From Candidatus Aerophobetes bacterium Ae_b3b (lineage in GTDB: Bacteria; Aerophobota; Aerophobia; Aerophobales; AE-B3A), in contig NJBP01000002.1 of assembly GCA_005223085.1 (NCBI GenBank), positions 2,427 through 66,426 of the forward strand: DNA of 64,000 bases, in the 5' to 3' direction. This document shows positions 9,541-62,569 of the stretch, piece after piece (the first letter of the stretch is position 1; each line of letters starts with the position of its first letter). The position numbers and the translations under genes were made by a program. The notes beneath the pieces were generated by a model. The model was not told where the DNA came from, searched no databases, and saw only the letters and a program-made list of their open reading frames with translations.

Positions 9541-9631
9541 TAGCAAGCCTGATATCATCCACTTTATCCAGCGCCTCTCGAGCTATCGCTCAAAATGAAC
9601 CTGCTTCATTCCTCACTTATAGTACAGAGGC

Positions 9632-9676
9632 AAAGGAAAGCTGGAAGTTAAATAGCCCCAGCTTTCCTTTGCTGTT
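9632..9676. terminator. perfect 15-bp stem hairpin between SBP and permease genes
   Basis: GCAAAGGAAAGCTGG-13 nt-CCAGCTTTCCTTTGC located 25 nt downstream of the SBP stop. Probably an intra-operon attenuator/stabiliser hairpin; no clean U-run. Confidence 0.45.
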
Positions 9677-11016: not shown

Positions 11017-11170
11017 CCTTCGGCCAACGTTCCCCAGAGAAGCGGGCTTTCGACACTCCTCTCTTGACGACTTGGCTCACTTTTCCCTGAAAGCTTCTAA
11101 AAAGAAATTTAGTTATTTAACGCTTTTCTTCAGAAGCTTTCTCTTGTCCCAGCTACCGGCCTATGTACTT

Positions 11171-11198
11171 TCTCACCCCCCTCCCGCCTTATTTTTAG
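11171..11198 (-). promoter_or_regulatory. conserved upstream box, copy 1 (TAAAAAT + AGGCgGGAGGgGGGTGAGA on coding strand)
   Basis: One of four copies of a ~30-nt box, about 150 nt upstream of the SBP start. A -10-like hexamer is followed by a purine-rich conserved segment. Confidence 0.5.
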
Positions 11199-11574
11199 AC
11201 TTCCTTTCAAAAAAGACCTAACCTTGCTAACTAATTATGAGCACATTCATTCTTTGTCAGTAATCATAGTGTGAAGTACTGTGTCTCTAGTCATGTCTCT
11301 TTTCTCATATTTTCTACTACGGGTTTTAAAGCGTATCCTTTGTCATGCCCTTGACGAATTCCTCAAGTTGGAGAATAACCTCTCTAGACTGATTCATTTT
11401 GACCCTCCCTTCTTGTCCATAGTTTTTCCCTGGAAAGGAGAATAGCAATTTTTCTCCTCCTTAACAAGAAGCAATAATTACCGGACACAATATTTTTTAT
11501 CCTCCTTAGCCTTCGCAAATTTCAATATCAGTTATTTTTCCCAGCTTTCAAATACGCTACAACATCGTATTTTC

Positions 11575-12993
11575 CTACTCCACCAAAAGTGGGGTACAGC
11601 CGGGCTCACCCTTTAGCTTCCTTAAGAACTCTGGAACCTTGCCACCGGCATCGGCAATTGCCAGATCTTTCATCCGCTCACAGATGTGAGGATACTCTTG
11701 GGCAATATTTTTTTCCAGTTTGGGATCAGCCTCTAAATCATAAAGAAGGGGGCTTTCACCCCAAAGATAAGCGTTATACCAATAGTGTCTGTCACGAACC
11801 ATAACGAATGGTCCCCAGCCACAGGTAACATGATCGTATATCTCTTTTCCTTTGCCTAAGGCTAGAGGCCAAATATCTTTTCCATCCATGGGCTTTTCTG
11901 GCTCTATTCCTAATCTGGCAAGAATGGTGGCGGGTAAATCAAAGTTGTAAATTAGACTATCGCAGGTTGTACTTGCCCCTTCTGCTTCTGGATGGCGAAT
12001 TATCAAAACCAAATCACAAATCTCTCGGCTCATGGGATGGCCTTGCTTTCCGACTATGTTATACTCACCAATGCAATGCCCATGATCAGAGATGAGAGCA
12101 ATGAGAGTATTCTCCATTAATCCAAGATTTCTCATCTTCTCAATAAAATAACCTAGCCATCGGTCTACCAATGTTATCTCTCCGGCATAGTTTGCTCTAA
12201 GGCGTTTTAATACACGTGAGCTCAGTTGATCAACCGGACCATAAAGAGAGGATAAGAAGTCTATGGTATCATTATCAGCATCATAGAGTTTTCTATAAGA
12301 TTTAGGTGGATCCCAAGGCTCATGAGGATCAAAGGAATCAACCACGAGGAAGAACTTATCGGCATCTTGATTCCTCTCGAGCCAATTAGTAGCAGCTTTA
12401 AAAACCTGAGCAGGAAAATAATCCTCCTCACAATGTCTATCAGCCACATTAGTTAGATACTTGCCAACAAAATCTGTATAATTTCCAAATTTTTCTATTT
12501 TCCCAGATCCTCTTAACTTTGTTCTTAAATTTTCAGGTATGTGATTTTCAATCTCTTCCTCAGGTGGAGCAGGACCTGAGCGATAAGGATCATGTTCCTG
12601 TCCTCTTATCCAGACCCACTCATCAAAACCACGATGAAAGTTCATTGATGGCTTAAACTGATGGTAAGTGTCGGTTATGAATGCCGTGCGATATCCATGC
12701 TGCTGCAGAATCTCAGTGATAGTATCACGTTCTTCGGAGATAGGCCCCCAGCCAGGTGAACCAATAAAAAGGTTGCCCCTGGAAGCTTTATGACCTATGA
12801 AGGGAAAGATATGACAGCCGGTTTGTAGAACTCTTCGAACCTGTAAAGTAGGAAGTGATTCTGGATAAGCATGGGTGAAAAGTACCGACTCTTTAGTTAA
12901 GGAGTCAAGATAAGGTGTTTTAATCCACTTATTTCCATAACAGCCTACATGATCCTGTCTTAAGGTATCAATGATTATCAATACCACATTCAT
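11575..12993 (-). CDS. sulfatase-fold (AlkP superfamily) enzyme, Thr-x-x-x-R variant of FGly motif
   Basis: IIDTLRQDHVGCYG N-terminus. AYPESLPTLQVRRVLQTG aligns to AYxTSPVCSPSRAALLTG with Thr at the Cys position. No TM segment. Confidence 0.75.
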   Translation of the reverse strand: MNVVLIIIDTLRQDHVGCYGNKWIKTPYLDSLTKESVLFTHAYPESLPTLQVRRVLQTGCHIFPFIGHKASRGNLFIGSPGWGPISEERDTITEILQQHGYRTAFITDTYHQFKPSMNFHRGFDEWVWIRGQEHDPYRSGPAPPEEEIENHIPENLRTKLRGSGKIEKFGNYTDFVGKYLTNVADRHCEEDYFPAQVFKAATNWLERNQDADKFFLVVDSFDPHEPWDPPKSYRKLYDADNDTIDFLSSLYGPVDQLSSRVLKRLRANYAGEITLVDRWLGYFIEKMRNLGLMENTLIALISDHGHCIGEYNIVGKQGHPMSREICDLVLIIRHPEAEGASTTCDSLIYNFDLPATILARLGIEPEKPMDGKDIWPLALGKGKEIYDHVTCGWGPFVMVRDRHYWYNAYLWGESPLLYDLEADPKLEKNIAQEYPHICERMKDLAIADAGGKVPEFLRKLKGEPGCTPLLVE

Positions 12994-13366
12994 CCCATTT
13001 CCTCCTCGTAGAGCTTTTTTTAAAATTATCAGCCTGCCTACTTATCCTTTGTGTAACGAGCATTACTCTATTAAAACTGGCAATTCCCTTTTATGAATAT
13101 AAAACTTTGGGAGAAGTTATCCTGAAAATAAACTCAAATGCTTGCTAGTATAAACACACTATAGCTGATTACAAATTAGCAAGGACAAAAGTCAACGTGA
13201 CCCGTATCTTTCCTGTCTAATTGGGTGCAGAAAATTTCCGATTCGAGAAAAAATTACAAAGCTTCAAAGAAAATTGAATTACATTGAATTTTCCATCAAG
13301 GCCTTACAAAGAACGAGAAGTCAGGATAGGTGTTTAGCCCTGTCTTTCTATCGCTGTAACAGCACA

Positions 13367-14215
13367 TCATTGCTTAACAGCCCCCGCCGCAAGTCCCGCA
13401 ACTAAATGGCGCTGCAACAAAAGGAAGAAAATAACGGTAGGGACAGTAGCCACGACTGAGGCAGCCATCACTACTCCCCAATCCGTTGTATACTGCCCAA
13501 GAAAGTTTGCTACCCCCACCGGTACGGTCTTTTTCTCAGTCTGGGTCATCAAGGTTAGCGCAAACACAAACTCGTTCCATGTTACTGCAAATGTATATGC
13601 TGAAGTTGCCACCAGACCCGGCAGGGAAATGGGCAAAATTACTCGAAAAATGACGCCCAGTGGTGAGCACCCATCGACAACGGCTGCCTCATCCAAGACT
13701 TTGGGAATTGTCTCAAAGTAACCTAATAGCATATATATGGAGAAAGGTACCGTAATGGCGATATAGACAATGATCAAACCCAGATAGGAGTTCACCAGGC
13801 GAAGGGCCCAAAACATCATAAAAACGGGGGTAACTAAGATTACCCAGGGGAACATTTGGGTAAAACCGACCATGGCCAATATTGAATTTCTCCCCGGGAA
13901 ATGATAGCGGGAAATGGCATAAGCCGCTGGCGAAGAGATAAGCCAAACACAAACGATAGTAGCAGTCGTGCACATAAACACGCTATTTAGAACGAAGCGG
14001 AAAAATCCAGCTTCAAGGATTCCCCGGTAATTTTCCAAGGTTAACGAACGACCGATCAATTGGAGTTCCCTGGTTAATAAATCAGTGGAAGGTTTTAGAG
14101 AACTAATAATCATCCAGAAGAAAGGGAATAGTATCAATCCAATGATGGCAAAAGTTACTACTACCACCGGTAAATCGCGGATCCTTGAAGACATATTCTC
14201 TTCGCTCCATATCAT
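13367..14215 (-). CDS. carbohydrate ABC transporter permease (MalG-like)
   Basis: EAA loop (DEAAVVDGCSPLGVIFRVILP) and TM profile. Confidence 0.85.
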   Translation of the reverse strand: MIWSEENMSSRIRDLPVVVVTFAIIGLILFPFFWMIISSLKPSTDLLTRELQLIGRSLTLENYRGILEAGFFRFVLNSVFMCTTATIVCVWLISSPAAYAISRYHFPGRNSILAMVGFTQMFPWVILVTPVFMMFWALRLVNSYLGLIIVYIAITVPFSIYMLLGYFETIPKVLDEAAVVDGCSPLGVIFRVILPISLPGLVATSAYTFAVTWNEFVFALTLMTQTEKKTVPVGVANFLGQYTTDWGVVMAASVVATVPTVIFFLLLQRHLVAGLAAGAVKQ

Positions 14216-15201
14216 GCAGTTATATTTCGTTTAAAAAGAGTACTAAAATATACCAATGCGAATCCCATCATTATCACCGTCATTATGACCCCAAAGGTTG
14301 CCCCGTACCCTACCTTGTAATTGACAAAGCTCTCGAAATACACATTGGTCCCCAGTACATGAGTAAAATCACCTGGACCTCCTCGGGTAGAGAGCCACAC
14401 GTAAACAAAATTGTTAAATGTCCAGATTGTGATCATGAAACCCACGATGGTGATAATTGGTTTCAGAAGAGGAAGTGTGACATAACGAAGTTCATGAAAC
14501 CAGCCCGCTCCATCGATTCTGGCAACTTCGTATAACTCCTGCGGGATGGATTGAAGCCCAGCAAGAAAACTGACCACGGCGAACGGCAGCTCTCGCCATA
14601 CCACTATTAAAATAATTGATAGCCAGACGACAGAAATATCAGTTAAGAAAAAAATCGGCTGACGTATCAATCCGAGGTTCTGAAGAGTTAAATTGACCAC
14701 TCCGTATCTGCTATGAAGCATCCACTTCCAAATGGTTACCGCCACCACAGGAGGAACTCCCCAGGGTACAAAAATAAGTATGCGCCCCATTCCGGCTAGG
14801 TGCCACCGCTTTAAGGCCTTGGAATTTAAAAGCAGTGCCAGTCCAAGACCCAGTAAAATCCGAAAAACCACCGTGGCCCCTGTGAGCCACAATACTGTGT
14901 TCTTAAGGGCATTATAAAACGCAGGATCCTCCGTGACCTTGATGAAGTTTTCCAGACCGACGAATTCTCCTCTTCCCTTGGCAGTCTCAAAAAGGCTAAT
15001 CTTATGCAGACTGAGCTCTATATTATACAGGGAAGGTATGAAGAAAAAGAAGACCAGGAGGGCTACGGCGGGCAAAATCAACCCATAGGCGTGAAATCTA
15101 GGTCGATGAGACCTATGCAGCCTTCCCCAGAGATTATTACTCTTCCCCATTTCTAGCCCCCCTGTCTCCTTTTTATCCTCACCTACACCATTTTCTTGCA
15201 A
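14212..15201 (-). CDS. carbohydrate ABC transporter permease (MalF-like)
   Basis: EAA loop (YEVARIDGAGWFHELRYVTLP). Stop overlaps the downstream permease start. Confidence 0.85.
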   Translation of the reverse strand: MQENGVGEDKKETGGLEMGKSNNLWGRLHRSHRPRFHAYGLILPAVALLVFFFFIPSLYNIELSLHKISLFETAKGRGEFVGLENFIKVTEDPAFYNALKNTVLWLTGATVVFRILLGLGLALLLNSKALKRWHLAGMGRILIFVPWGVPPVVAVTIWKWMLHSRYGVVNLTLQNLGLIRQPIFFLTDISVVWLSIILIVVWRELPFAVVSFLAGLQSIPQELYEVARIDGAGWFHELRYVTLPLLKPIITIVGFMITIWTFNNFVYVWLSTRGGPGDFTHVLGTNVYFESFVNYKVGYGATFGVIMTVIMMGFALVYFSTLFKRNITA

Positions 15202-15204
15202 CTT

Positions 15205-16539
15205 CTAGGACTTCCCGGTTGCCTCTTGCAATGCCTCCTCAATAGCCTCCAGGAGATCCTTGCTTGCTCTTTCTACTGACTTCTGACCCGAATAAACCGC
15301 AGCGAATTCACGGTTCGTAAGGGACCACATCGTCTGTACTCGAACAGGTGAGACAATATACTCATAGAATGTCTGTGCTTGCGGTATGAGTTTTACATAT
15401 CCCTCGTATTCAGATGCATAGCTAACTTTTTCCAGAAGCGTTTTTTGGGCGGAGAACTGTTGTCGGTAATAGGTTTCAAATACATGCTCAGAGCACATCC
15501 ATTTTAGAAGTTCCCAGGATTCCTTTAGATGTTTGGTATTCTTGTTGATGGCCAGAGTGCGCCCTCCCAAGTGGGTTCGCCGAGTCACCCTGCCTGCCGG
15601 AACCTGGGCAGAGGCTAGGGGTGCCTGGGGATTAGCGTCCATTGCCGCACGAAATGATTGAGGGGGCATGAATCCCATAGCAAAGTCACCTTTGGCCAGT
15701 CCATGGAGTATCTCGGGGTCTCCCCAGGAGTCGACGGCGATTAAGGATCGTGGGGAAATACCTTCCTCAAAGAAACTATTGAAATACCGCATGGCTTCCG
15801 CAATTGCCTCGGCATCAACTCCAAGTTGCCAGGTACCATCGCCGTTTTGTTTCATAAAGGTATATCCGTGACTCCAAATAAAGTAGTTAACCAAGAACCA
15901 CATTCCCCCGGTAGGGCCGCTGCCGGCTGGAAAAGCAAAGCCGTATCGATCTATTATTCCATCTCCATCACGATCTTCGGTCAGTTTCTTTGCCACCTCT
16001 TTGAAATGAGACCAGGAATCGTCCGGAAAGCCAACAATACCCGCTTTGGCAAAGAAATCTTTTCGATATATCATCGCGAAGGTATCAGTGGTCCAAGGGA
16101 TTCCATAGACATCATCACCCATCTTTCCAAGCTCTAGCGCGACAAAATCATCAATTCCCCTCGGTAGTGGATATTTCTCGAACAAGGGATTGAGTTTAAC
16201 CAATGTACCAGCCTTGGCCAAGTCCATTGTCCATACAAAAGCAAGTTGGAGCACATCGGGGCCTCCACCAACTCCCGCTTCCCGGACAAATTGAGTAAGA
16301 GCATCTGACCAGGGTACTACCTCATATTGGACTTTGATGTTAGGATGCTTCCGGTCAAACTCTTGCACAGCTTCTGATAGGCCAGTAGCATCAGCCGGAG
16401 AATCGTTTTGCCGGAATATCAGACTAATCTTATCTTGGGCAAATCCGGCCATCCCGGTGACCAACGTTAAAGTCAAACTAAGACCTACTACTAAGACAAG
16501 CTCTATTAGTTTTCGTTTCTCAATTCTCATTAATTTCAT
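15205..16539 (-). CDS. ABC transporter extracellular solute-binding protein
   Basis: Signal peptide and family-1 SBP-like sequence. Confidence 0.8.
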   Translation of the reverse strand: MKLMRIEKRKLIELVLVVGLSLTLTLVTGMAGFAQDKISLIFRQNDSPADATGLSEAVQEFDRKHPNIKVQYEVVPWSDALTQFVREAGVGGGPDVLQLAFVWTMDLAKAGTLVKLNPLFEKYPLPRGIDDFVALELGKMGDDVYGIPWTTDTFAMIYRKDFFAKAGIVGFPDDSWSHFKEVAKKLTEDRDGDGIIDRYGFAFPAGSGPTGGMWFLVNYFIWSHGYTFMKQNGDGTWQLGVDAEAIAEAMRYFNSFFEEGISPRSLIAVDSWGDPEILHGLAKGDFAMGFMPPQSFRAAMDANPQAPLASAQVPAGRVTRRTHLGGRTLAINKNTKHLKESWELLKWMCSEHVFETYYRQQFSAQKTLLEKVSYASEYEGYVKLIPQAQTFYEYIVSPVRVQTMWSLTNREFAAVYSGQKSVERASKDLLEAIEEALQEATGKS

Positions 16540-16656
16540 TTACTTTACCTCCTATATACAGGCATGGTTCAATTTGCCGTCAAATTCTCCAAGGAAATCT
16601 TAATTACCAGAGATCCCTTGGAAAATTCTTTGCCTCAAGCTAGCCTGGCCCCTTAT

Positions 16657-16689
16657 CTCTCACCTCCCTCCTGGCCTTATTTTCTAGCT
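16657..16689 (-). promoter_or_regulatory. conserved upstream box, copy 2
   Basis: tctctcacctccctcctggccttattttctagct, about 120 nt upstream of the SBP start. Confidence 0.5.
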
Positions 16690-16974
16690 TTTGTTCCACC
16701 AAGCCAGATCGTGTTCTCCCAACCTCTCGGAAATTGCTTTATCACCTCGTCAGTTTATGGACCTCTTTTTAGATATCCCTTTCACCTCCCTTCAATTTCT
16801 ATTTCTACTCTCTGTCTTCTCGTGATAACAAAAACCTTAATTTTTTTAAACTTTGTTCTCTCAAAACTTTATCTTAGGATGCGGCTATTAGAAAACCAAC
16901 ACCAGAGAGGTGTAGTTGTTTATCTACTATACCCTGTGATCGGCAGAAAAGCTATATTAAGTCCTTGCCCGTAT

Positions 16975-18282
16975 TTAGAAAGACCGACGATAAATTTGCT
17001 CCACATCTTCCTCAGTTGCTGGGACAGGATTCTTTTCTACACCTCTCCTCATAGTTTTAAACGCACCTTGGGCCATATTCGAAATCTTATTTTGATCGAT
17101 CTTCAATTGACTAAGATTTACTCTCAAACCCACCTTCTCCAGTAGCTCCTTTACTGCCTGGATACTCTTTTTTGCCTTCTCCTTAGTGCATTCACGTATC
17201 GATTGACCCATAGTTTTAGCTATCTCACAGTACTTATGCACAGTTTTTTTATCCCCGTTATCGATGTTAAACTCCATCACGTTAGAGGAGATGGCAGCTA
17301 AGGCCACCCCATGATCAACATTAGGATAATGTCCGCTTATCGGATGAGCCATAGCGTGGGGAAGAGCTGCAGATGCGACGGCAATAGCCCAACCAGCGTA
17401 GGTATCAGCGAGGGCCATGTTGAATCTTGCCTCCATGTTATCTCCTTCCCGGTAGGCTGCAGGAAGATAACTGAAGACAAGTTCAATCGCCTTCAAGCAG
17501 TAGCTATCTACAATAGGATTACCCTCCCTGGATACAAAAGCCTCCAAAACATGGGCCAAGGTATCAAATCCTGTACGGGCAGTTAGTTCTGGAGACATAT
17601 TTTTTGCTATATTTAAATCTACAATGGATACCCGGGGATACATATACTCTGAACCGAACCCTGGCTTTTCACACGTCTCAGGGTTGCTAATCACAGCATA
17701 TCTGGTTACATGACTTCCAGTACCCGACGTGGAAGTCACAGCAATTACGGGTAATGTGGCCTCGGTTATAGATAGTGGTTCATCCTGTGTTACCGAGAAA
17801 TCCCAGATAGAACAGGGGCTACTTTTAGAGTGCCCTGCCACTACTGCTATTACTTTTGCCGAATCCATAGCCGAACCTCCACCCATGCCCACTATCACCT
17901 CACACTGGTTTTGTAAAGCCAATTTAGCCCCTTCATCCACTATATCTACGGTGGGATTGGGTTCTACCTTCCCATAATGGAATACCTTAAGCCCTTCTTG
18001 CTCCAGATATTTTCTTGCTTTGTCCAAGAATCCCAATCTCTGCATGCTTTTTCTACCTGTAACCAGTAGGACAGATTTACCCAGTTTTCTTGTCTCTTTA
18101 CCGAGACTTTCCAGCGCTCCCTCTCCAAATATGAGGTTAGTTCGAGGAAATAGGTACCGAAATGTCATTTTCTTCTCCATCTGTAGTTTATGACTACTTT
18201 TGCTTACCCTGTCTTCTATATTTTCCAGCACTCCTTTACCAGACATTAACTCTGTTCTGGGTAGCAGATATTCAAAATTCAT
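16975..18282 (-). CDS. iron-containing alcohol dehydrogenase family protein
   Basis: GGGSAMDSAKVIAV and Fe-ADH His block (ALPHAMAHPISGHY). ATG overlaps the stop of the upstream NPP-like gene (ATGA). An alternative start is at M39 (18168). Confidence 0.85.
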   Translation of the reverse strand: MNFEYLLPRTELMSGKGVLENIEDRVSKSSHKLQMEKKMTFRYLFPRTNLIFGEGALESLGKETRKLGKSVLLVTGRKSMQRLGFLDKARKYLEQEGLKVFHYGKVEPNPTVDIVDEGAKLALQNQCEVIVGMGGGSAMDSAKVIAVVAGHSKSSPCSIWDFSVTQDEPLSITEATLPVIAVTSTSGTGSHVTRYAVISNPETCEKPGFGSEYMYPRVSIVDLNIAKNMSPELTARTGFDTLAHVLEAFVSREGNPIVDSYCLKAIELVFSYLPAAYREGDNMEARFNMALADTYAGWAIAVASAALPHAMAHPISGHYPNVDHGVALAAISSNVMEFNIDNGDKKTVHKYCEIAKTMGQSIRECTKEKAKKSIQAVKELLEKVGLRVNLSQLKIDQNKISNMAQGAFKTMRRGVEKNPVPATEEDVEQIYRRSF

Positions 18283-20213
18283 TCTTCTTGCTCCACTACA
18301 TCGTAAAGTACTCGCCCCTCTGCATTTCCCGGTGGGTGTATGCCTACAAGATAAGCTACAGTTGGTGTCACATCTATAGTTCTCGCTGGAACCTTACGTC
18401 GATATCCCTTTTTAACACCTGGACCCTTTATGAAAAGAATTGCTTTCATCGTCCCCAAGTTCTGCCTAGAAGACGGAAGATAGGTATGGTGGACGCCAGC
18501 GAAGGGATAAATGCCTTCCTCAGACTCATAGGGAGGATCCTCAATAATAGGCAGTCCTTTAGTGAGTATCCAAGCTGTCTCATCGTTGTACTTTGGATTT
18601 AGAGTATATACGATATCTCCCACTCTATCTCCGTGCTGACCAAAAAACGCGGCCTCTTCCTTCTTCAAGATCATATTTACGACATTCTCTCTAGTTTCTG
18701 GATCTTTGAGATTTCGGAAAAGGTCGATAACCTTCTCTCTTATCTTCTCGTAATCTTTAGGGTCTACAACCCCTCCTTTTTCTCGTCCGGCGAGGTTAAC
18801 ATAAATATACGAACCAAAGGGAGAAAAGACTTTAGTTTTGGACCAGTCAACTTTCAGGTTACCATCCTCAGTCTCTTTGTAAGCTATAAGACCTTCTCTC
18901 GCCAAAAAGTTATTGCAGTGGAATACCTTCCTTGGAGCCATATGTCCATGGTCTGAGACAACTAAGATAAGGGCCTCTTCTCCAGCTGCTTTCATAAGTC
19001 TTCCTAAGTAGACATCCGCCATCTGATAGACTCTACGGATGACCTCTTCACATTCTGTTGCCCTTTGCTCCTTGTAGGCAGAACTTTCCGGGTCCATTCC
19101 TCCAAGATAGCAGTGATCAGTGTAATCTATTCCGTGCCACTGGGCAAAGAGCATATCCCAGTCCTTATTCTTCACAAGATACTCTCCTGCCTCTGCCAAC
19201 CAGCTCATTTGATTCTCCAGCTCCTCTAGATATGTTTTTGAATCTATCCATCCTCCCAATATAGGACTGTAAATATCACAGAGAAGCTGATACGGTCGGC
19301 CGATATGCTCTGTGAGCTCTCTGGCAAGACTATCTGGATAAGTCCACCCCGTGGAGGGAAAGATCTGGCTAAAGTAGAGACGAAACCTTTTCGCATCCTT
19401 GGAAAGCTCAATGAGTTTCATACGAAAGTTCCCTTCCTCTTTTCCTTTACTGGTGGTAAATTCTGCCTTCAAAAAGTTGCTCCACTCCCCTTCAGTTATG
19501 CTACATAAAGCTTTTTCTATATCTTTTTCCTCTGAGAGGAAAAATCTGTCGTAACCCTCACCTTTGCTATCTATAACCAGAGCATAAAATGCTTTCTCTT
19601 CTCCCCCCGGAGGACGGATCTTTAGTATGGTCTCTAGCGGAGGAGAGTTTGAAGAAGGCCTGTTTCCCCATCTCTGCGCCTCCTTAAACTCTACCTTATA
19701 GGCACAGCTTATCTCCTTAGGTCCTGCCCCATAGGCTTCCATGTTTCTTTCTCGCATCTTCTCTGTGGAAAACCCAAGTCTAGGAGCAATTTGGAAAGGG
19801 TTCCAATCTGGATTTCCCACTCCTTCAACCTGTAGACCTTCCTTTATAGTTGGAGGCCAGGAGGCTGGGTAACGCAAGAGAATTACCTTCTTTCCCTGTC
19901 TTTCTGCTGCGTTCCATAGGTACTCTGCCTGACATCTTTCGGTGGTGAAAGACTGAAACCTCTCAGAAAGGGAAGTTCCGGGAAGATGAAGAGTCATCTC
20001 CACAATACCGTGAGTACCTACGTTGGCTCCTGTGGCAATACAGGTCCAGTTCATAGCTGTACCTGTGGGAATAGCAGGAAAAGTTTCTGAGGTCACTCCC
20101 TCTTCCATAAGGCGCTTCATGTTGGGAAGATGACCTTCCTTCACAAATCTTTCCACTAAGTTCAAATTCGCAGAGTCGAGTCCTAGTAGTATACATTTTT
20201 TTACGCGTGCCAT
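18279..20213 (-). CDS. AlkP-superfamily type I phosphodiesterase / nucleotide pyrophosphatase (NPP)-like protein
   Basis: ILLGLDSANLNL and FPAIPTGTAMNWTCIATGANVGTHGI match the NPP PTxTFPNHYTxVTGxxPxxHGI nucleophile block (Thr). Confidence 0.7.
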   Translation of the reverse strand: MARVKKCILLGLDSANLNLVERFVKEGHLPNMKRLMEEGVTSETFPAIPTGTAMNWTCIATGANVGTHGIVEMTLHLPGTSLSERFQSFTTERCQAEYLWNAAERQGKKVILLRYPASWPPTIKEGLQVEGVGNPDWNPFQIAPRLGFSTEKMRERNMEAYGAGPKEISCAYKVEFKEAQRWGNRPSSNSPPLETILKIRPPGGEEKAFYALVIDSKGEGYDRFFLSEEKDIEKALCSITEGEWSNFLKAEFTTSKGKEEGNFRMKLIELSKDAKRFRLYFSQIFPSTGWTYPDSLARELTEHIGRPYQLLCDIYSPILGGWIDSKTYLEELENQMSWLAEAGEYLVKNKDWDMLFAQWHGIDYTDHCYLGGMDPESSAYKEQRATECEEVIRRVYQMADVYLGRLMKAAGEEALILVVSDHGHMAPRKVFHCNNFLAREGLIAYKETEDGNLKVDWSKTKVFSPFGSYIYVNLAGREKGGVVDPKDYEKIREKVIDLFRNLKDPETRENVVNMILKKEEAAFFGQHGDRVGDIVYTLNPKYNDETAWILTKGLPIIEDPPYESEEGIYPFAGVHHTYLPSSRQNLGTMKAILFIKGPGVKKGYRRKVPARTIDVTPTVAYLVGIHPPGNAEGRVLYDVVEQEE

Positions 20214-20471
20214 ACCATGCTTCTCCCTAGTTCGTTAATGTGCCCTTCGCAAAATTCGAAAATCAGCTACTGCTACTTTATCTCCTATCTGCTTGCGATA
20301 GAGTATCCATCAGTCCAGAGTTTTCTGCTGCAGCATCTTCCGCTTAGATGTAGGAACTCATACAAAATCTCATTCCTCGATATACTCTTTATTATATTCA
20401 CCAGCTTTGCTGGAGTGTGCCTTGGTGGAGCTGAAAGGAAAAGATGGACATGACCCCTCATATTGTAAGAA

Positions 20472-21845
20472 CTACCTCACTGAAGTGTGAGATAACTCAT
20501 ACTGAAGCTGCAACATCTTTGTTTTCTGGGAGAAGGTTCTGTTTATCTCTTTTACTTTAAGGGTGAAATACCTGCCAAGATGGGATAAAAACTCCTCTAC
20601 TTTTTCCGGATACTCGTCGATGAGGTTTTTTGTTTCTTTAGAATCCCCCTTTAAGTTATAAAGTTCATTTTTCTCCCCTTCAGGGTGAACAAGTAAGCTC
20701 CACTCTTTATCTCGGATGCACCGATGATATGATTCATGGTAACCGGTTATGATAAAATCTCTTATCTTCTCCTTTTTTCCCCTAACAACGGGCCAGAAGC
20801 TTTTCCCGGACATAGCCTGGGTCTCTTTTTTGAGATCCATTGCCTCCAGGATGGTAGGAAGAACATCAGGCATTTGAATGAGAGTATCAATCCTTTTCCC
20901 TGCATAAAGTCCCTCAGGAGGATGAATGAAAAGAGGTATTCTTATAAGCTCACCGTATAGATTATCCGGGGTCTTCATTATGGAGCCATGATCTCCATGA
21001 GGATGTCCATGATCGGAGAGGAGTGCTATAAGAGAGTTATCATAAAGACCACAATCTTTTATCTTCTCTAAAAGGTATCCCACCCACTTATCCACAAAGC
21101 TTACCTCTCCTGCATATAGAGCTTTCACATATTTTAGCTCCTCATCACTCATCCAGTCAACTTTTCCATATTGGGGATGGATGAGTTTGGGACCTTCATA
21201 ATTAGGATTGGTATACATCTTATCAAAAGGAGAAGGAGGGTCCCAGGGCTCATGGGGATCAAAGGAGTCCACCCAGAGAAAGATCTTTTCCTCACCTTTA
21301 TTGCGTTCCAGCCACCTTACCGCCTCCTGCATGACCTGGGCGGCAAAATAGTCTTCTTCTTTTTGCCAATGTTCGGTATTTTTCAAGTACTGCTCAAGCA
21401 TTCCCTCCACAGGATCGCCTTTCATGGCTGGCTTTATATAACCATTGATATTCTTATTTAAAGGGCCTGACACATAGGAGTCTGCCTCCTGTCCCCTTAT
21501 CCAACGAAAGCAGCTAAATCCTCGGTGAAAGTTCATGTCAGGTTTAAATAAATGGTAGGTGTCAGCAATCAAGGCTGAGGTGTAGCCGTACTCTCTCAAT
21601 ATCTCTGAGATAGTTACATCCTCTTTGGTTAAGGGTTGCCAGGGTCGGTAGGGAAGGCTACTACATCCTGTGAAAAGCTCAGTTCTAGCCGGAATGGTGG
21701 GAAGACCTTCGGTGTAAGCCTCTTCAAAGAGGATACTCTCCTTAGCAAATTTATCTATATTGGGCGTCTTTATCCATGTATTCCCATAGCATCCCAGATG
21801 ATCCTGCCTCAAACTATCCAGCATAATCACAATAAGGTTCATCAA
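20472..21845 (-). CDS. sulfatase-fold enzyme, T-x-P-x-R variant (paralog of 11575-12993)
   Basis: MLDSLRQDHLGCYG N-terminus. AYTEGLPTIPARTELFTG carries Thr-Ile-Pro-Ala-Arg where sulfatases carry Cys/Ser-x-Pro-x-Arg. Confidence 0.75.
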   Translation of the reverse strand: MMNLIVIMLDSLRQDHLGCYGNTWIKTPNIDKFAKESILFEEAYTEGLPTIPARTELFTGCSSLPYRPWQPLTKEDVTISEILREYGYTSALIADTYHLFKPDMNFHRGFSCFRWIRGQEADSYVSGPLNKNINGYIKPAMKGDPVEGMLEQYLKNTEHWQKEEDYFAAQVMQEAVRWLERNKGEEKIFLWVDSFDPHEPWDPPSPFDKMYTNPNYEGPKLIHPQYGKVDWMSDEELKYVKALYAGEVSFVDKWVGYLLEKIKDCGLYDNSLIALLSDHGHPHGDHGSIMKTPDNLYGELIRIPLFIHPPEGLYAGKRIDTLIQMPDVLPTILEAMDLKKETQAMSGKSFWPVVRGKKEKIRDFIITGYHESYHRCIRDKEWSLLVHPEGEKNELYNLKGDSKETKNLIDEYPEKVEEFLSHLGRYFTLKVKEINRTFSQKTKMLQLQYELSHTSVR

Positions 21846-22087
21846 CTTTCCTCCTGTTTTTTGATCTTATCTACTTTGCCTCTAGCCATAGTTTGGTTGG
21901 ATATTCTGGTATTATTCATTACGAAAGGTAACCGTCAAAAAAATTGCAGGATGATCATAAGAAAGAACTAATCTCCTCGAGAAGAAATTTGAACCACGTC
22001 ATACTCTCTACCTTTCTTTAAGAGCTCTACCGTAATCAAGTCACCGCTGAAGCCCTGGAAAATACTCATAATTCGGGATAGATTTCT

Positions 22088-23209: not shown

Positions 23210-23212
23210 TCT

Positions 23213-24088: not shown

Positions 24089-25101
24089 TTTCTTCTTTTC
24101 TCCATATATTGAATGAACACCAGGTAGGCCAATATAATAAGAAAAGTAAATATCATTGTCATCGTAGCTATTGCACTTCCTTTTCCGATGTTCTTCGCAG
24201 TGAAAAAAGTCCTTATCGTTAATAACTGCAAGGTCTCGGTAAGTCTCCCTGGCCCTCCGCCTGTCATAGTCTCAATAATGCCATATATCCTCATCGCTGT
24301 AATTGCCCGCCATAGCACCACTACTGTTATAGCTGGCATAATAAGGGGAAGGGTAATGTGCCGAAAGATCTGCCAGGTGTTCGCCCCATTTACCTTAGCT
24401 ACTTTATAATATTCCGAGGGTATCGACTCCAGAGCTGCAAGTAGTAATAATGTACTGATAGGAATATTTCGCCATACTGCTGCAACAATAACAGCATTCA
24501 TAGCTACAGCTGAGTACATCCAGTTAAATACATGGGAGTAAGATAGCAACCATGGAATGTATTCTTCTATGAATCCTGCTGACTTCAACAGATAGTTAAT
24601 AACTCCATATTCGCTACTATACATTAGTTTAAAGGTTATACCTGCAATAGCTATAGGAGTAGCCCAAGGTACCAGAAGTGCAGTTCTAATAATAGCCTTT
24701 CCTTTAGTTTGTTTGGAGGCAAGAAAAGCACCCATCATTGCAAACAGGAGCATAAAAACAATATTTAAAACAGTAAAATAAAAGGAATGGAGAAGAGCGG
24801 CAAAAAAGATTGGGTCCGTCAAAAGGGAGATGTAATTGGCAAGCCCGGTGAATTTATACTCCAGCCAGGGTTTGGTCGGTGCATATTGGTGAAAGCTCAC
24901 CCAAATTGTTCCAAGGAGAGGAACCCCGATTATTACGGTAAGTAATAGGATAAGGGGACTTAATAGGAGAAGACAAAAGTGCCCCTCCGATAGTCTTTCC
25001 ACCCATAGACTGAATTTACCGGGTATACCTCTTATCCCATTTATGAAAAGACCCAGGGAAACCGTTCTTAGTTTCCCTGGGCTGTTTCTCCCTTTTACCA
25101 T
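24085..25101 (-). CDS. carbohydrate ABC transporter permease (MalF-like)
   Basis: EAA loop (YKVAKVNGANTWQIFRHITLP). Overlaps the downstream permease start. Confidence 0.85.
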   Translation of the reverse strand: MVKGRNSPGKLRTVSLGLFINGIRGIPGKFSLWVERLSEGHFCLLLLSPLILLLTVIIGVPLLGTIWVSFHQYAPTKPWLEYKFTGLANYISLLTDPIFFAALLHSFYFTVLNIVFMLLFAMMGAFLASKQTKGKAIIRTALLVPWATPIAIAGITFKLMYSSEYGVINYLLKSAGFIEEYIPWLLSYSHVFNWMYSAVAMNAVIVAAVWRNIPISTLLLLAALESIPSEYYKVAKVNGANTWQIFRHITLPLIMPAITVVVLWRAITAMRIYGIIETMTGGGPGRLTETLQLLTIRTFFTAKNIGKGSAIATMTMIFTFLIILAYLVFIQYMEKRRK

Positions 25102-25109
25102 ATCACTGT

Positions 25110-26483
25110 TTACTTTTTCCTTCCATACTCTTCCTCGATCTTCCTCATACCGGCTTCAAGACGTTGAACAGCTTCCTTCACATCGTACTGGCCAATTAGC
25201 ATAGGCTTAAGTACATCTATCAGCAGTGCTCTCAGCTCCCCGTAGACCGGGCTGAACGGCCGCTCATTAGCGTATTGAACTGCTTGCCCAATGGTTCTCG
25301 CATAGGGGGCAAGCAAAGGGGAAACTTCTTTAATTTTCTCAGGAGTGAAAAGAGCCGAGTAGGGAGGTAGGGCTCCCATAGCGTTAATGAGGAAGAGCAA
25401 TGAATTGGGCTCTGCTGCTGCTTGAATTACCTTTACTGCTGCCCTCTTGTTCTTGGAGTTGGGATTCACTCCCCACCACCATCCCCCCATTGAACTGTTG
25501 CCATGAGGAGACATTGCCGAGTAAAGTGGTGTCGCTGCCCATTTCTCGGAAGAGAGTCCAGTTACCGGTTCCAATTGAGTAATTCCGAAGTTCCAGAGTC
25601 TCATAAAAACGGACTTACCGGCACCAAACATCCTCATCGCGTCACTGTTATTCCAACTGATAGCTTCTTTAGGCATAATCTTGTGCTTTAAATACAAGTC
25701 CTGCCAGGCCTTCAGAGTCATAATAACCTCGGGGGCATCAGCGGTTATGGGACGGTCTCCTACCGGTCCATAGAGATACTGTTTTCCTCCGTAGAGATAT
25801 CCGTCAAAAGCCCGCAAAAGCTCAAAGAAGAAGCCATCAAAACTTCCACCCTCATGGGGAGCGATCCAGCCGTAAGGAACACCTTCTTTTTCAGAGACCT
25901 TTTTAGCAGCATCAATGAGGTTGCCCAAGCTGGGGTTACTGTCAAACTGTAAGGGAGTAACCTTGTATCCATATTTTCCTAAGAGATCCTTCCGCACGTA
26001 GAGAACTCCTACCCCGAACCGCCAAGGAACAGCATAGTACTTGTTACCCCATGCCGCAGCATAAATACTTTGGTGTACTGGAAAAAGTCGGTTCCAAAAA
26101 TCTTTGGGCATGTGTTCCATCAGTGCTTCCGCATCTAGCCATCCTGCAGTAACATATTCTGCATAGTCCTCTACGGTAAGACTGGTGAGGTCCGGTAGTG
26201 ACTGTCCAGTTATCATAATTGTGGCAACTTCTTCCCTTTCCTTGGGGACACTGACATCAGAACGTCCAGGAACGAATTCGACTTTTATATCTTCTCCCAT
26301 TTTTATTACATTGTCTTGAACGATGGATTTCCACTTCTCCCAGTTCTCATCAGTCATTCCCTTATTAGCCCGGAACTGAACTTTAGTGGTAGCCCCAGCG
26401 GTACCGAGGCTAATCCCTGCTAGGATAAGGCAACTCAAAGCCAATATACAGAGACTTCTGCAAACATTTGCTTTTGCTCTCAT
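25110..26483 (-). CDS. ABC transporter extracellular solute-binding protein
   Basis: Signal peptide and SBP-like sequence; first gene of the SBP-perm-perm-ATPase operon. Confidence 0.8.
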   Translation of the reverse strand: MRAKANVCRSLCILALSCLILAGISLGTAGATTKVQFRANKGMTDENWEKWKSIVQDNVIKMGEDIKVEFVPGRSDVSVPKEREEVATIMITGQSLPDLTSLTVEDYAEYVTAGWLDAEALMEHMPKDFWNRLFPVHQSIYAAAWGNKYYAVPWRFGVGVLYVRKDLLGKYGYKVTPLQFDSNPSLGNLIDAAKKVSEKEGVPYGWIAPHEGGSFDGFFFELLRAFDGYLYGGKQYLYGPVGDRPITADAPEVIMTLKAWQDLYLKHKIMPKEAISWNNSDAMRMFGAGKSVFMRLWNFGITQLEPVTGLSSEKWAATPLYSAMSPHGNSSMGGWWWGVNPNSKNKRAAVKVIQAAAEPNSLLFLINAMGALPPYSALFTPEKIKEVSPLLAPYARTIGQAVQYANERPFSPVYGELRALLIDVLKPMLIGQYDVKEAVQRLEAGMRKIEEEYGRKK

Positions 26484-26598
26484 ATTTTCCCTCCCTGAAA
26501 TATGGTTCGAATTTCTAGGAAAGCTCTCATCAAGAAAAAACCATGAGTTAACAACCTACCTCGAGAACTTCCTTTTCCTGAGCTGACAGCCTACTCAT

Positions 26599-26629
26599 TC
26601 TCTCACCTCCTCCTGGCCTATTTTTAGCT
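26599..26629 (-). promoter_or_regulatory. conserved upstream box, copy 3
   Basis: tctctcacctcctcctggcctatttttagct, about 117 nt upstream of the SBP start. Confidence 0.5.
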
Positions 26630-26843
26630 CTTCTCTTACCGACAATCCAGCTTCACTACTACTTGTGAGGATTTTTCGAGCAGCATTTCTCTCAAAAACT
26701 TTCCTTAACAATGTTCACTCTCAAAAACATTGACAAAACATCCATCGAGATTATACCAAAAAAGAGCCGCTTTGGCAAGACCACCCTCGTTTTAGTTTCG
26801 CCTTCTAACCTGCATTCCTCATCGATCCAGAAAAGATTGCCCC

Positions 26844-27824
26844 TTACTCTCCCTTCAGCATCTCCCTTCGTTTGTTGAGCAGAGATTCAATAGCTTCTAT
26901 ATCTTCATTGGAGAGAGTCCACTTTGCTGCAACAACATTTTCCTCAATTTGAGATTGTCGTCGTGCCCCTACGATAGCTGCGGTTACCTCGGGACGTCGT
27001 AGCACCCAACCAATCGCCACGTGCGCCACAGTGATATCATTCTTTTTGGCAATAGACCGTAGGCCCTCAACCAACGCAAGATTAGCGCCTAACTCGGGTT
27101 CCTGAAAATGAGGATCTCTATCACGCCGATGGTCATCGTGGGGCAAGCTGTGTATCCACTCCTTGGTGAACTTCCCGGTCAAAATGCCCTTTTGCAGGGG
27201 ACTGTACACAATGACACCGATGTTGTTGGCTGCACAATAATCCAGCAGCCCTTCCTCCACACCCCGCTCGAGCATACTGTAGGGCGGCTCGAGTGAAGCC
27301 ACCGGATGAATGGGCTGGATACGTTGGAGTTGTTCTACGTTGAAATTAGAAACTCCAATGTAGCGGACCTTCCCCTCTTTTACCAGCTCGGCCATGGCAG
27401 CCCAGCCTTCCTCAATATCTTTGTCGGGATCTGGCCAGTGCATTAGATACAAATCAATAACCTCGACCTTTAGTCGCCGGAAGCTTGCCTCAATTTCGCG
27501 GCGGATACTGTCTTTGGTCAGTATGCCAGATATCTTCCCCTTTGAGTCCCACTTCCGACCGCACTTGGTAACAAGGATCACCCGCTCACGTATTCCTTTG
27601 ATAGCCCTGCCCACGACCTCCTCTGAGTGACCAAATCCGTATACTGGAGCGGTATCTATCCAATTTATCCCTAGTTCCACACCTCGCCGGATCACAGCAA
27701 TCGACTGTTCGTCATCCTGGGGACCCCAACTCCATGTCCACCCGCTTCCTCCAATTCCGGCCGTCCCTAGTCCAATGGTTGATAGGCTAAGCCCTGTGTA
27801 ACCCAGTCTTCTTGTCTTCACCAC
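26844..27824 (-). CDS. aldo/keto reductase
   Basis: AKR family sequence (GYTGLSLSTIGLGTAG..., IGVSNF). GTG start preferred after RBS GAGGAGG; the ORF track uses an upstream TTG. Confidence 0.8.
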   Translation of the reverse strand: MVKTRRLGYTGLSLSTIGLGTAGIGGSGWTWSWGPQDDEQSIAVIRRGVELGINWIDTAPVYGFGHSEEVVGRAIKGIRERVILVTKCGRKWDSKGKISGILTKDSIRREIEASFRRLKVEVIDLYLMHWPDPDKDIEEGWAAMAELVKEGKVRYIGVSNFNVEQLQRIQPIHPVASLEPPYSMLERGVEEGLLDYCAANNIGVIVYSPLQKGILTGKFTKEWIHSLPHDDHRRDRDPHFQEPELGANLALVEGLRSIAKKNDITVAHVAIGWVLRRPEVTAAIVGARRQSQIEENVVAAKWTLSNEDIEAIESLLNKRREMLKGE

Positions 27825-28406
27825 TACGCCTCCTCGCAAGTCTTATAAAGGGTCAATTTTCGATGAGTAAGCGCTACCACACCTGAGGTTCTCTTCCTCA
27901 GGCCAGAAGTATATCTAGCCCCCGAGCCTTGCTTTCTGACCACCAAAAGCATATCTCCTGCCTTACGTTTCTTCCAATTCTTCTTTTACCTGCTCGACAC
28001 AGCTGCGTCCATAATTCTACTCACGTAAGTAATTATCTCGCCTCCTTTTATTTCCATTTCTCCACGTATGGAGCCATCCCCGGCATATAAAATTTTGATC
28101 ACGCCTCTTACCTCCCATTCTTATTTTTGAGATCCAGCTTGCGATTCTGACAGAATAACAAAGTTCCTTTTATCCTAATTATGATTTGAACATGGTTGCA
28201 GGGTCAAGCAGGCGTGGTATCTTAAGTCTGACCAGTCTGTTTCCACCCTTTTCGTCTGGTGACGCCTCAGCAGCCATACCATAGATCTATCTCTTGTTCT
28301 CGCCTCTTCAAACTGGACTCGACCTTTTCGGTGACATGGCTTTCCTGGCTACTTCACATATCTCCAAGCTGGATCGGCCCTCCCTACCTGTCGGCGGACT
28401 ACCTAA

Positions 28407-28439
28407 CTCCTCACCTCCTGTCGGCCCTATTTTCCAGCT
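28407..28439 (-). promoter_or_regulatory. conserved upstream box, copy 4 (more diverged)
   Basis: ctcctcacctcctgtcggccctattttccagct in the 760-bp gap between the IclR and AKR genes. Confidence 0.4.
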
Positions 28440-28601
28440 TTGCCGCCTTCAAAAGATCTGAAGAACTGGTTTTGTAGCCAGTGCAAACCGCTTTCGACCT
28501 TTCTTTTGCTTAGGATGGAGATTGAGCCATGAAAGAACAATAAGGCAGACCCAGGATCTGCCTGCACCTTGGAATCTAAAAGGGCTGTCTTTCGACTCTG
28601 T

Positions 28602-58425: not shown

Positions 58426-58509
58426 GGACATTAAAGAGCAGATATTTTATAATACTGTATCAAGAATTTTTGTCAAATTGAACGTTCCAAGATTCCCTCA
58501 TTTAGTGAA

Positions 58510-62557: not shown

Positions 62558-62569
62558 GGAGACGATTTG

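Follow-up and report, generated by a model that had tools for sequence, protein, structure and literature searches.

A structured leader RNA with a Shine-Dalgarno-like hairpin loop upstream of solute-binding-protein genes in Aerophobota-like sediment bacteria

Results

Four copies of one leader element in the window

The DNA studied here is a 64,000-nt stretch of the Candidatus Aerophobetes bacterium Ae_b3b assembly GCA_005223085.1 (forward strand of contig NJBP01000002.1). We call the whole stretch the window, and all coordinates refer to it. It encodes three solute-binding proteins (SBPs) of the Pfam family SBP_bac_1, an aldo-keto reductase, an IclR regulator and a GAF-ANTAR protein, as the original prediction had named them. 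That prediction had also proposed that a box of about 30 nt, repeated four times, is a cis-regulatory element shared by the three SBP operons and the aldo-keto reductase gene, and for the leaders of all three SBP operons our analysis supports a shared element. We found that the genes are transcribed with a modular 5' leader RNA, whose first hairpin has the box as its conserved loop and junction. Of the two options left by the prediction, promoter or transcribed leader, the second was the right level.

All four copies (c1 to c4) lie on the minus strand, in the same orientation and at the places proposed for them. Read on that strand, each consists of AAAAUA(A/G)GGCC, then 4-6 purines and then GGnGGUGAG(A/G)(A/G). 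The gapped pattern AAAATN{1,3}GGCN{3,6}GGNGGTGAG matched c1-c4 alone in the 64 kb, with 0 matches expected from 100 dinucleotide shuffles. An nhmmer profile made from homologues outside the window recovered these four copies and nothing else in the window, and the covariance model R1 found them with E-values of 1e-7 to 1e-11 (scores in Table 1), the rest of the window reaching at most 25 bits. A fifth look-alike at 47258-47322 on the plus strand was rejected: it scored 24.9 bits with R1 (E = 0.0016), was missed by nhmmer and lies antisense within the Lyase_1 domain of an argininosuccinate lyase gene.

The box had been placed 115-150 nt upstream of the start codon. This holds for SBP2 and SBP3 (about 116-118 nt) but not for SBP1 (about 180 nt), whose start is likely the ATG at 10992 with its Shine-Dalgarno (SD) sequence AAGGAGG, rather than the TTG at 11016. 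The flanks of the box had been described as not conserved. By eye this is true inside the window, the remainder of the leader being 45-53% identical there, but not across about 100 homologues, in which the conserved unit extends over about 140 nt (from helix P1 to the 3' tail) plus an upstream segment. The three SBPs are mutually only 22-25% identical and their 5' hairpin modules 69-85%, so the leader is selected for itself and has been attached to unrelated genes, not inherited with the gene.

Table 1. Leader copies, their parts and the SBP genes they precede. Paired strands are separated by a slash; R1 and R2 are covariance models of the first hairpin and of the full leader; MFE, minimum free energy.
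Feature	Position	Strand	Sequence, score or remark
Leader c1, before SBP1	11067-11205	-	R2 109.4 bits, E = 1.7e-21
c1 R1 match	11146-11204	-	59.7 bits
c1 P1	11195-11200/11151-11156	-	column-to-coordinate map
c1 junction J1/2		-	AAAUAA; column-to-coordinate map
c1 P2	11185-11188/11158-11161	-	column-to-coordinate map
c1 loop	11162-11184	-	23 nt
c1 invariant SD-like core	11170-11180	-	GGGGGUGAGAA
c1 hairpin P3	11089-11141	-	GAAAGCUUCUGAAGAAAAG ... AUUUCUUUUUAGAAGCUUUC; MFE -17.9 kcal/mol, z = -3.0; P3 covaries across the family
c1 3' tail	11067-11088	-	
c1 upstream boxA-like segment	11203-11222	-	GUUAGGUCUUUUUUGAAAGG, read from sequence; family consensus UUAGAUCUUUGGCAAG
c1 promoter-like sequence	11234-11260	-	CTGACA-N15-CATAAT; putative promoter
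SBP1 gene	9700-11005	-	SD AAGGAGG 10999-11005, ATG 10990-10992; SBP_bac_1, 2e-39
Second tail-like box before SBP1	11006-11018	-	GGUUGAACUAUGU
Leader c2, before SBP2	16559-16694	-	R2 76 bits, E = 5.6e-14
c2 R1 match	16633-16693	-	48.9 bits
c2 P1	16684-16689/16638-16643	-	
c2 P2	16673-16676/16647-16650	-	
c2 loop	16651-16672	-	
c2 invariant core	16657-16667	-	
c2 hairpin P3	16581-16628	-	z = -3.75
c2 3' tail	16559-16580	-	
SBP2 gene	15205-16539	-	ATG 16537-16539; SBP_bac_1, 5e-39
Leader c3, before SBP3	26497-26634	-	R2 86 bits, E = 3.1e-16
c3 R1 match	26576-26633	-	59.9 bits
c3 P1	26624-26629/26581-26586	-	
c3 P2	26615-26618/26588-26591	-	
c3 loop	26592-26614	-	
c3 invariant core	26600-26610	-	
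c3 hairpin P3	26519-26572	-	z = -1.6
c3 3' tail	26497-26518	-	
c3 promoter-like sequence	26750-26778	-	TTGCCA-17-TGgTATAAT (extended -10 TG); 11/12 consensus match only; about 120 nt 5' of the c3 box
SBP3 gene	25110-26483	-	ATG 26481-26483; SBP_bac_1, 2e-17
c4, 5' hairpin module only	28366-28440	-	pairing by hand
c4 R1 match	28381-28442	-	41.4 bits
c4 P1		-	AAGCUGGA/UCCAGCUU, 8 bp, compensatory relative to AGCUAA/UUAGCU
c4 P2	28423-28426/28376-28379	-	GGCC
c4 loop	28380-28422	-	enlarged, 43 nt
c4 invariant core	28408-28418	-	
c4 boxA-like segment	28445-28462	-	

Anatomy and secondary structure of the leader

The consensus was built from 119 leaders less than 93% identical to each other. The leader is about 140-190 nt long overall and begins with a boxA-like segment, UUAGAUCUUUGGCAAG, in about one third of the copies. 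In the window this segment is seen at c1 and c4 (Table 1), as a possible NusB/S10 site near the 5' end of the transcript. Then follow rrAA, the 5' strand of P1 (AGCUAA), the junction AAAUAA and the 5' strand of P2 (GGCC). The loop of this hairpin 1 is a purine loop of 22-35 nt with the consensus (A/G)G(A/G)(A/G)GGAGGUGAGA(A/G)(A/G)(G)UAA(A/G)UA, and it is closed by P2' (GGCC) and P1' ((A/G)UUAGCU). A linker GGGAAA leads to P3, a long hairpin of about 20 bp with an apical loop of about 14 nt (consensus GGAAAGCUUUCCAAAGAGAGAAG [UGUUGAAAGAUUAA] UUCUCUUUUUGGGAGCUUUCC), and to a single-stranded tail, ACAGAAAAAUGAACCAUGUC, after which come 5-25 nt, the SD and AUG. The invariant columns are AAAAU, G.C and GG.GGUGAGA. 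The SBP leaders of the window carry the conserved tail, AAAUGAACCAUGUC, just before the true SD, where by eye a second conserved box reads (A)AAUUGAACCAUG. An AUG in the 3' tail was rejected as a start, as other copies have AUU, AUA, AUC or UCG there.

The arms of P1 differ among the copies already by eye: AG(U)CUA/UAGCU in c1, AGCUAG/CUAGCU in c2, GAGCU/AGCUC in c3 and AAGCUGGA/UCCAGCUU in c4. Each of c1-c3 also has a long P3 of differing sequence, with the thermodynamic z scores given in Table 1. A perfect 10-bp inverted repeat reported in the SBP1 leader (11089-11098 / 11132-11141) is real and forms the base of the c1 P3. The single-sequence MFE fold of c2 yields P1, P2 and P3 too, and RNAalifold predicts the same three helices on a structure-blind MAFFT alignment.

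In 108 copies of hairpin 1 aligned with the covariance model, 89.6% of the cells were paired, 5 of the 6 P1 pairs had changed on both sides, and there were 28 double-change cells against 5.1 in shuffles (0/500). The 103 full leaders aligned in the same way gave 86.5% paired cells, compensatory change in 26 of 30 pairs, 170 double-change cells against 70.7 in shuffles (0/500) and a covariation score of 0.259 against at most 0.116 for slid partners. Single P3 pairs changed between GC and AU (37/22), between AU and GC (57/12) or among CG, UG, UA and GC (42/17/7/6). Such alignments are fitted to the model, and a MAFFT-only alignment of 59 sequences served as the structure-blind control (see Discussion). 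Naive pair-type and mutual-information scans were dominated by purine/pyrimidine composition and subfamily signal. We regard the P1 and P3 helices as well supported and P2, in which the changes are almost only from G-C to G-U (GC 79, GU 22), as plausible. The structure belongs to the sense transcript, because its many G-U pairs would turn into A-C mismatches in an RNA of the opposite strand.

In five other loci (L011, L022, L054, L072 and L079) hairpin 1 alone stands directly before the SD, and it is therefore a separable module. c4 is of the same kind. It has no P3, the full-leader model R2 misses it at E<1e-6, it lies downstream of the terminator-like hairpin of the IclR gene (28543-28563) and it has no adjacent open reading frame (ORF) conserved with the orthologous locus, L025. 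The loop of c4 holds a tandem duplication, GGCCGACAGGAGGUGAGGAG / GUCCGCCGACAGGUAGGGAG, which is missing from L025. Downstream of c4, the region 28077-28207 contains a promoter-like TTGACC-18-CATAAT (28178-28207) and, scoring 9.9 bits, a degenerate box, AAAAAUAAGAAUGGGAGGUAAGAGG; a 38-aa ORF (27986-28102) without a Pfam match follows directly.

The box is not a promoter or an operator of the island

The TAAAAAT at the edge of the box had been read as a -10 element. In many homologues, a canonical TTGACA-17-TAAnAAT lies 55-75 nt 5' of AAAAU, and a promoter-like sequence stands upstream of c3 as well (Table 1). The bases just 5' of TAAAAAT and overlapping it are the 5' strand of P1, with compensatory changes and G-U pairs. 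Because this strand overlaps TAAAAAT and the promoters lie upstream, TAAAAAT is itself transcribed. No conserved -35 was found at a spacing of 16-18 bp from TAAAAAT. A generic sigma-70 scan upstream of all leaders (at least 9/12 matches) showed no overall enrichment (40 against 32 in shuffles), but 19 leaders had a perfect TTGACA at a consistent distance.

The original prediction went on to suggest that the box coordinates the island as a promoter or operator bound by the adjacent IclR, or as a target of the ANTAR antiterminator. Both regulator genes adjoin c4, and all window copies lie inside one 18-kb carbohydrate island. The same leader, however, precedes more than 100 genes on other contigs, which is not the picture of an island regulon. 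In a tblastn search of the 131 leader-bearing loci listed (840 kb), IclR homologues were present in 6, among them the window orthologue L025, and a GAF-ANTAR protein in L025 alone. An IclR operator should be a short palindrome of fixed spacing that co-occurs with its regulator; here the P1 arms are 37-62 nt apart and contain G-U "mismatches". With arms so far apart and a variable spacing, the box is ill-suited to a dimeric DNA-binding protein. As in ANTAR-regulated leaders, there is a 5' leader with two hairpins and, in the window, an ANTAR gene nearby. Unlike in those leaders, the loops measure 22-35 nt and about 14 nt instead of being hexaloops with A1/G4, the second hairpin is not overlapped by a terminator, and the ANTAR gene does not co-occur elsewhere. 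The dual hexaloop hairpins that had been expected were absent, the four window leaders showing isolated, non-conserved single hairpins. Many unrelated sites turned up in the motif search elsewhere, a result which the original prediction itself had named as speaking against an island operator, yet the box is not a generic promoter either. Taken as DNA operator or ANTAR target, the box is hardly credible.

Occurrence of the leader family

In 185,579 species genomes the pattern matched 103 loci, about 36 of them true homologues; in metagenome contigs it matched at least 119 loci, about 95 of them true and mostly from marine or sediment samples. With nhmmer the family amounts to at least 143 copies in at least 132 loci, i.e. 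about 140 homologous leaders from Aerophobota metagenome-assembled genomes (MAGs) and marine-sediment metagenomes. Among the loci listed, R1 matched 108 copies and R2 103. True loci were found in the Candidatus Aerophobetes MAGs AUK148, AUK284, MAG210, CSMAG_2520, Ae_b3a, E44_bin3 and B47_G16, and in MAGs labelled just "bacterium" (K_2_bin.77, K_2_bin.52 and b3.sp2_bin.56). The named MAGs belong to the candidate phylum Aerophobota by their NCBI placement, and the leader-bearing MAGs originate from Baltic, Guaymas and cold-seep samples. A few true loci are in MAGs labelled Clostridia; in at least one of them (L010) the leader and the downstream protein are nearly identical to those of Aerophobetes-labelled contigs. 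The window itself is 93-94% identical to contig JBHIAL010000003.1 of K_2_bin.77 and about 99% identical to two metagenome contigs.

Judging by these contigs, the family is specific to sediment bacteria like the Aerophobota, which live with growth close to zero (PMC6469976). The leader had no match in Rfam 15, either at gathering thresholds or at E<=10, and a literature search on Aerophobetes with riboswitches or transporters returned nothing relevant. The family thus appears uncatalogued: it is absent from Rfam 15 and, as far as our literature searches show, undescribed.

The leader is tied to binding-protein genes

A co-oriented downstream ORF was found within the search range for 121 of the 140 copies. 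The distance from the box to its start codon clusters at 125-175 nt, with a median of 151 nt from AAAAU and of 136 nt from GGAGG (interquartile range 125-157). A Pfam scan assigned about 81 of the 101 non-redundant downstream proteins to solute-binding proteins of five structurally distinct families: SBP_bac_1/8 (50), SBP_bac_5 (17), Peripla_BP_4 (9), Peripla_BP_6 (4) and SBP_bac_3 (1). The other genes were URO-D (two) and single cases of CstA, Cpn10 (GroES), transketolase, PrpD, S-Me-THD, pyroglutamyl peptidase and others. The leader is therefore gene-class-specific and tied to highly used genes, above all to the SBP cistrons of ATP-binding cassette (ABC) transporters.

We considered whether the leader might be a non-functional or selfish repeat, for instance a promoter-leader cassette spread by recombination or gene conversion. 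Several contigs do carry more than one copy (three each in L165 and L193, four in the window), one locus (L012) has an identical pair 1.7 kb apart, and a rearrangement between leader-bearing regions was seen in L203. A dispersed repeat or miniature inverted-repeat transposable element would insert independently of gene orientation and distance. Here the orientation and the distance to the start codon are strict, one gene class is concerned, compensatory changes keep the helices, the core is invariant across many species and no terminal repeats were seen. A selfish origin of the family is very improbable.

The invariant core of the loop is a perfect Shine-Dalgarno sequence

The core of the hairpin-1 loop, GGAGGUGA, is the exact complement of the canonical 16S rRNA tail UCACCUCC. 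Among the 119 leaders, GGAGGUGAGA occurs in 91, GGGGG in 15 and GGUGG in 3, and GGnGGUGA is invariant. The variable base keeps the pairing with the anti-SD, because with few exceptions it is A or G, either of which pairs with the U in CCUCC. Duplex energies were calculated with an assumed generic 16S tail, GAUCACCUCCUUU, from which the tail of the host lineage may differ; the predicted duplex of the core amounts to -17.1 +/- 0.8 kcal/mol, against -9.6 +/- 2.5 for the true SDs and -3.3 for other windows of the leader. On the same assumption, the core duplex was stronger than that of the true SD in 108 of 108 leaders. In partition-function folds the core was 61% unpaired.

The core is not followed by a conserved start. 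ATG, GTG or TTG stands 5-12 nt 3' of it in 16 of the 119 copies, opening ORFs of 1-33 codons that are not conserved. We therefore rejected a leader peptide or upstream ORF after the box, although the AUG at c3 would give 16 codons. It is very unlikely that an 8-nt invariant matches an ideal SD by coincidence, and the core should therefore bind the anti-SD of the ribosome or an imitator of it. Ribosomal RNA genes, sought in the leader-bearing loci for the anti-SD and for the boxA of rRNA (rrn) leaders, were not found there.

Highly conserved unpaired nucleotides, framed by covarying stems in a 5' untranslated region (UTR), would also suit a riboswitch, with hairpin 1 as the aptamer for a general metabolite or second messenger. 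In the window leaders c1-c3, nothing resembling a terminator stands between box and start codon; the sequence after P3 is ACAGAAAAAUG, which is not a U-run. A competing helix, of the 5' flank GAAAAGCU with the 5' strand of P3 AGCUUUUC, looked like a switch but was without covariation (69.5% paired against 70.1% in shuffles); it arises because AGCU is palindromic. Long-range pairing among the 5' segment, the P3 loop, the tail and the box gave equal duplex energies for cognate and non-cognate partners (best p=0.049, uncorrected). Thus neither an expression platform with mutually exclusive structures nor a pseudoknot partner emerged. The downstream genes have many unrelated substrates, no family described in Rfam 15 matches, and the core is simply an SD. 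As a riboswitch the leader would be most improbable.

The boxA-like segment raises the question of processive antitermination, in which this 5' sequence and the hairpins, as a Nus-factor element, would modify RNA polymerase against Rho or hairpin termination over the long untranslated leader and the long operon. The models are lambda nut, rrn leaders, HK022 put and Bacillus EAR. The segment, (G/A)(A/C/G)UCUUU(G/A)(G/A)CAA(G), which can also be written (G/A)AUCUUUGGCAAG, resembles GYTCTTTAANA near the 5' end of a long untranslated RNA. It stands at a fixed 24-28 nt before AAAAU, and at least 11 of 16 positions of UUAGAUCUUUGGCAAG match in 41 of the 119 leaders against 4 of 119 shuffles. GYTCTTTAANA is the gamma-proteobacterial boxA consensus (PMC5725501), which may not be that of the host; our consensus GAUCUUUGGCA agrees with it at 8 of 10 specified positions, single loci at up to 10 of 11, and single copies such as GGUCUUUAACAAG and GCUCUUUAACAG come near to it. 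boxA is known upstream of mRNAs and CRISPR arrays and diverges between phyla (PMC7665894). Unlike the boxA/Nus sites of these two sources, the segment is found in only about a third of the copies and outside the box itself, and c2 and c3 carry it weakly. The likeness is confined to a short U-rich motif, and the boxA of the host's own rrn leaders is not among the loci. Antitermination would also leave the perfect-SD core unexplained, and the C-poor leader is a poor Rho substrate anyway. We therefore consider this function improbable.

Discussion

We tentatively propose that the leader is a docking hairpin for the 30S subunit, either akin to the stabilising SD (STAB-SD) of Bacillus or a standby site, which boosts or stabilises the mRNAs of binding proteins. 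We see this as a possible reading rather than a probable one. The loop of hairpin 1 would mimic an SD and base-pair with the 3' tail of 16S rRNA, and a 30S subunit would be held on the untranslated leader, some 135 nt upstream of the start codon, and would not initiate there. The docked subunit might shield the 5' region of the mRNA from 5'-end-dependent decay, in the manner of the cry3A STAB-SD and the strong SD of hbs. Alternatively, it may act as a standby ribosome for the true SD. P3 could then be a rigid spacer which folds away the intervening 70 nt and brings the docking site beside the true SD. By either route, expression of the binding-protein cistron would greatly exceed that of the other genes in the operon. 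Binding proteins are needed in large excess over the membrane components of their transporters, as in the case of malE. The docking model fits this need, and it fits the 3' hairpins after SBP1 and SBP3 that bracket their cistrons (see below).

The anatomy of the leader, its conservation, its gene association and the SD identity of its core are shown by the data, whereas 16S pairing and its stabilising or standby effect are what we infer, with known systems as precedents. The cry3A STAB-SD of Bacillus thuringiensis lies at -125 and protects a processed, long-lived mRNA, according to a passage in PMC12970973 that cites Agaisse & Lereclus 1996. The B. subtilis hbs mRNA is another case of ribosome-mediated protection (PMC5737220). 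What our leader has in common with both is an SD-like 16S complement that is not used for initiation, in the untranslated leader of genes that are, or here would be, very highly expressed. Its median position (-136) is close to that in cry3A; with the generic 16S tail assumed, it is a 16S complement far from the start codon and without a functional start codon after it, as in a STAB-SD. Unlike the STAB-SD, the SD mimic sits in a conserved hairpin loop, and the leader around it, of about 140 nt, also has a second, long hairpin and a conserved tail. The mimic belongs to a multi-copy family with more than 100 members in one gene class of an uncultured candidate phylum.

Standby loading has been described on a long 5' UTR (PMC5924895). 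Like standby sites, the leader offers an accessible upstream 30S site on a presumably highly translated mRNA, from which relocation to the true start would be possible. The known standby sites are unstructured stretches, not a perfect SD in a hairpin loop, and we know of no conserved family of them.

Several points weigh against 30S docking. Pairing with 16S rRNA leaves the near-invariant GA after GGUGA, the junction AAAUAA, the (G)UAAAUA in the 3' part of the loop, the P3 apical loop and the 3' tail, all of them conserved, unexplained, and conserved parts beyond the 16S complement suggest additional partners. The box is an estimated 45-60 nt or more from the predicted transcription start, whereas a STAB-SD acts near the mature 5' end. 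The calculated duplexes depend on the generic 16S tail mentioned above. The structure itself is less striking in the structure-blind alignment, in which covariation was modest: there were 57 double-change cells against 44.5 in shuffles (8/500), 83.0% against 81.8% of the cells were paired, and the score was 0.256 against 0.236 (2/500), slid partners reaching at most 0.184. Finally, hairpin 1 as a 5' module alone is not thermodynamically unusual (z of -0.4 to +1.0).

The same features could serve a regulator in trans. The leader would then be the docking platform through which a global factor controls nutrient-uptake genes, an unlikely function in our view. The factor, named with the same reserve, might be a small RNA (sRNA) with an anti-SD-like seed, UCUCACCUCC, or a CsrA-, Hfq- or Crc-like protein that reaches across P3 and links the loop with the true SD. 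A coherent gene class, uptake SBPs of five families plus CstA, argues for it, as does conservation beyond the anti-SD complement (GAGA, the ARN-type A-rich tract AAAUAA, UAAAUA, the tail and the loop of P3). In addition, P3 would place the box close to the true SD. In proteobacteria, the targets of AbcR1/2 and GcvB are mostly binding-protein mRNAs, recognised via short shared sequences in the 5' UTR or near the SD, and AbcR1/2 act on them through anti-SD motifs. ABC-transporter mRNAs are thus a controlled class in those regulons as they might be here. Unlike the short motifs of the AbcR and GcvB targets, we have a structured leader of 140 nt. No candidate sRNA or protein was identified, and groES, transketolase and further cytoplasmic genes carry the leader as well. 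For CsrA, the required GGA is not invariant whereas GGUGA is, and the invariant core gives no covariation with a partner in cis or trans. For AbcR1/2, passages in PMC3712013 and PMC8844928 describe the regulation of several ABC transporters and the post-transcriptional control of many of their mRNAs as a class.

30S docking may also be part of something larger. The leader could be a phylum-specific composite RNA, made of boxA-like element, SD-mimic hairpin, long hairpin and conserved tail, which marks uptake genes as a tag. It would load 30S subunits, and possibly Nus factors, on the nascent leader and couple transcription, mRNA survival and translation for the whole class. We hold this for rather unlikely. 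If true, it would be a dedicated post-transcriptional layer, perhaps tuned by a single trans factor, that suits sediment bacteria which are starved of energy and grow ultra-slowly.

With this leader, a candidate phylum without a cultured member contributes a large, well-defined structured RNA family of more than 100 members that Rfam 15 lacks. It is unusual that one cis element is common to binding-protein genes of five unrelated families. This gives a handle on how the binding-protein cistron comes to be over-expressed in bacteria compared with the other genes of an ABC operon, and on whether SD mimics that dock ribosomes, such as STAB-SD and standby sites, are a general, reused device or isolated cases. 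The models R1 and R2 can be used to annotate starts of transcription units and highly expressed uptake genes in Aerophobota MAGs.

Additional observations

Some loci show rearrangements near leader copies. The metagenome contig L203, 99% identical to the window, joins the SBP3/aldo-keto reductase region (25488-28005) to the sulfatase region downstream of c1 (11569-12868), with 1.7 kb of unaligned DNA between them, and this structural variant ends near leader copies. The two identical leaders of L012 are at 360-590 and 2043-2270. The first is directly preceded by the 3' half of another leader (P3 3' strand and tail), which hints at leader-leader recombination.

In five loci (L010, L011, L022, L026 and L059) a second conserved element of about 90 nt stands directly before the leader, about 40-130 nt 5' of the box. 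It reads GGAGCYUAWGGGAAUAUCAGGGAC...CCUGA..GGUCCGCAGGCUCC, has complementary ends and had no Rfam match at gathering thresholds. The pattern scan also caught an unrelated conserved intergenic element of Sphingomonas and other Sphingomonadales, AAAAUAUGGCAUUGC(C/G)GGGGGUGAGGGCAAGGGGG, followed by a GC-rich terminator-like hairpin (L004, L006, L030, L044, L052, L056, L067 and L089).

Two of the SBP genes of the window have a strong hairpin directly after the stop codon, also on the minus strand. That of SBP1 (about 9630-9672) has a perfect 15-bp stem, GCAAAGGAAAGCUGG/CCAGCUUUCCUUUGC, without a U-run, and that of SBP3 (25051-25082) a 13-bp stem plus CUUUUC. Together with the 5' leaders, they bracket the two binding-protein cistrons. 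The SBP1 hairpin reuses the P3 motif GGAAAGCU, and an interaction between the 5' and 3' UTRs is conceivable.

The island abounds in sulfatases and type I phosphodiesterase/alkaline-phosphatase-like enzymes, encoded between the SBP operons (11575-12993, 18279-21845 and 5729-7294), and this gene content suggests that the island takes up and desulfates sulfated glycans. Further along the window, two cobalamin riboswitch aptamers (RF00174) point in opposite directions, one at 58206-58428 on the minus strand (105.9 bits) and the other at 62559-62743 on the plus strand (89.5 bits).

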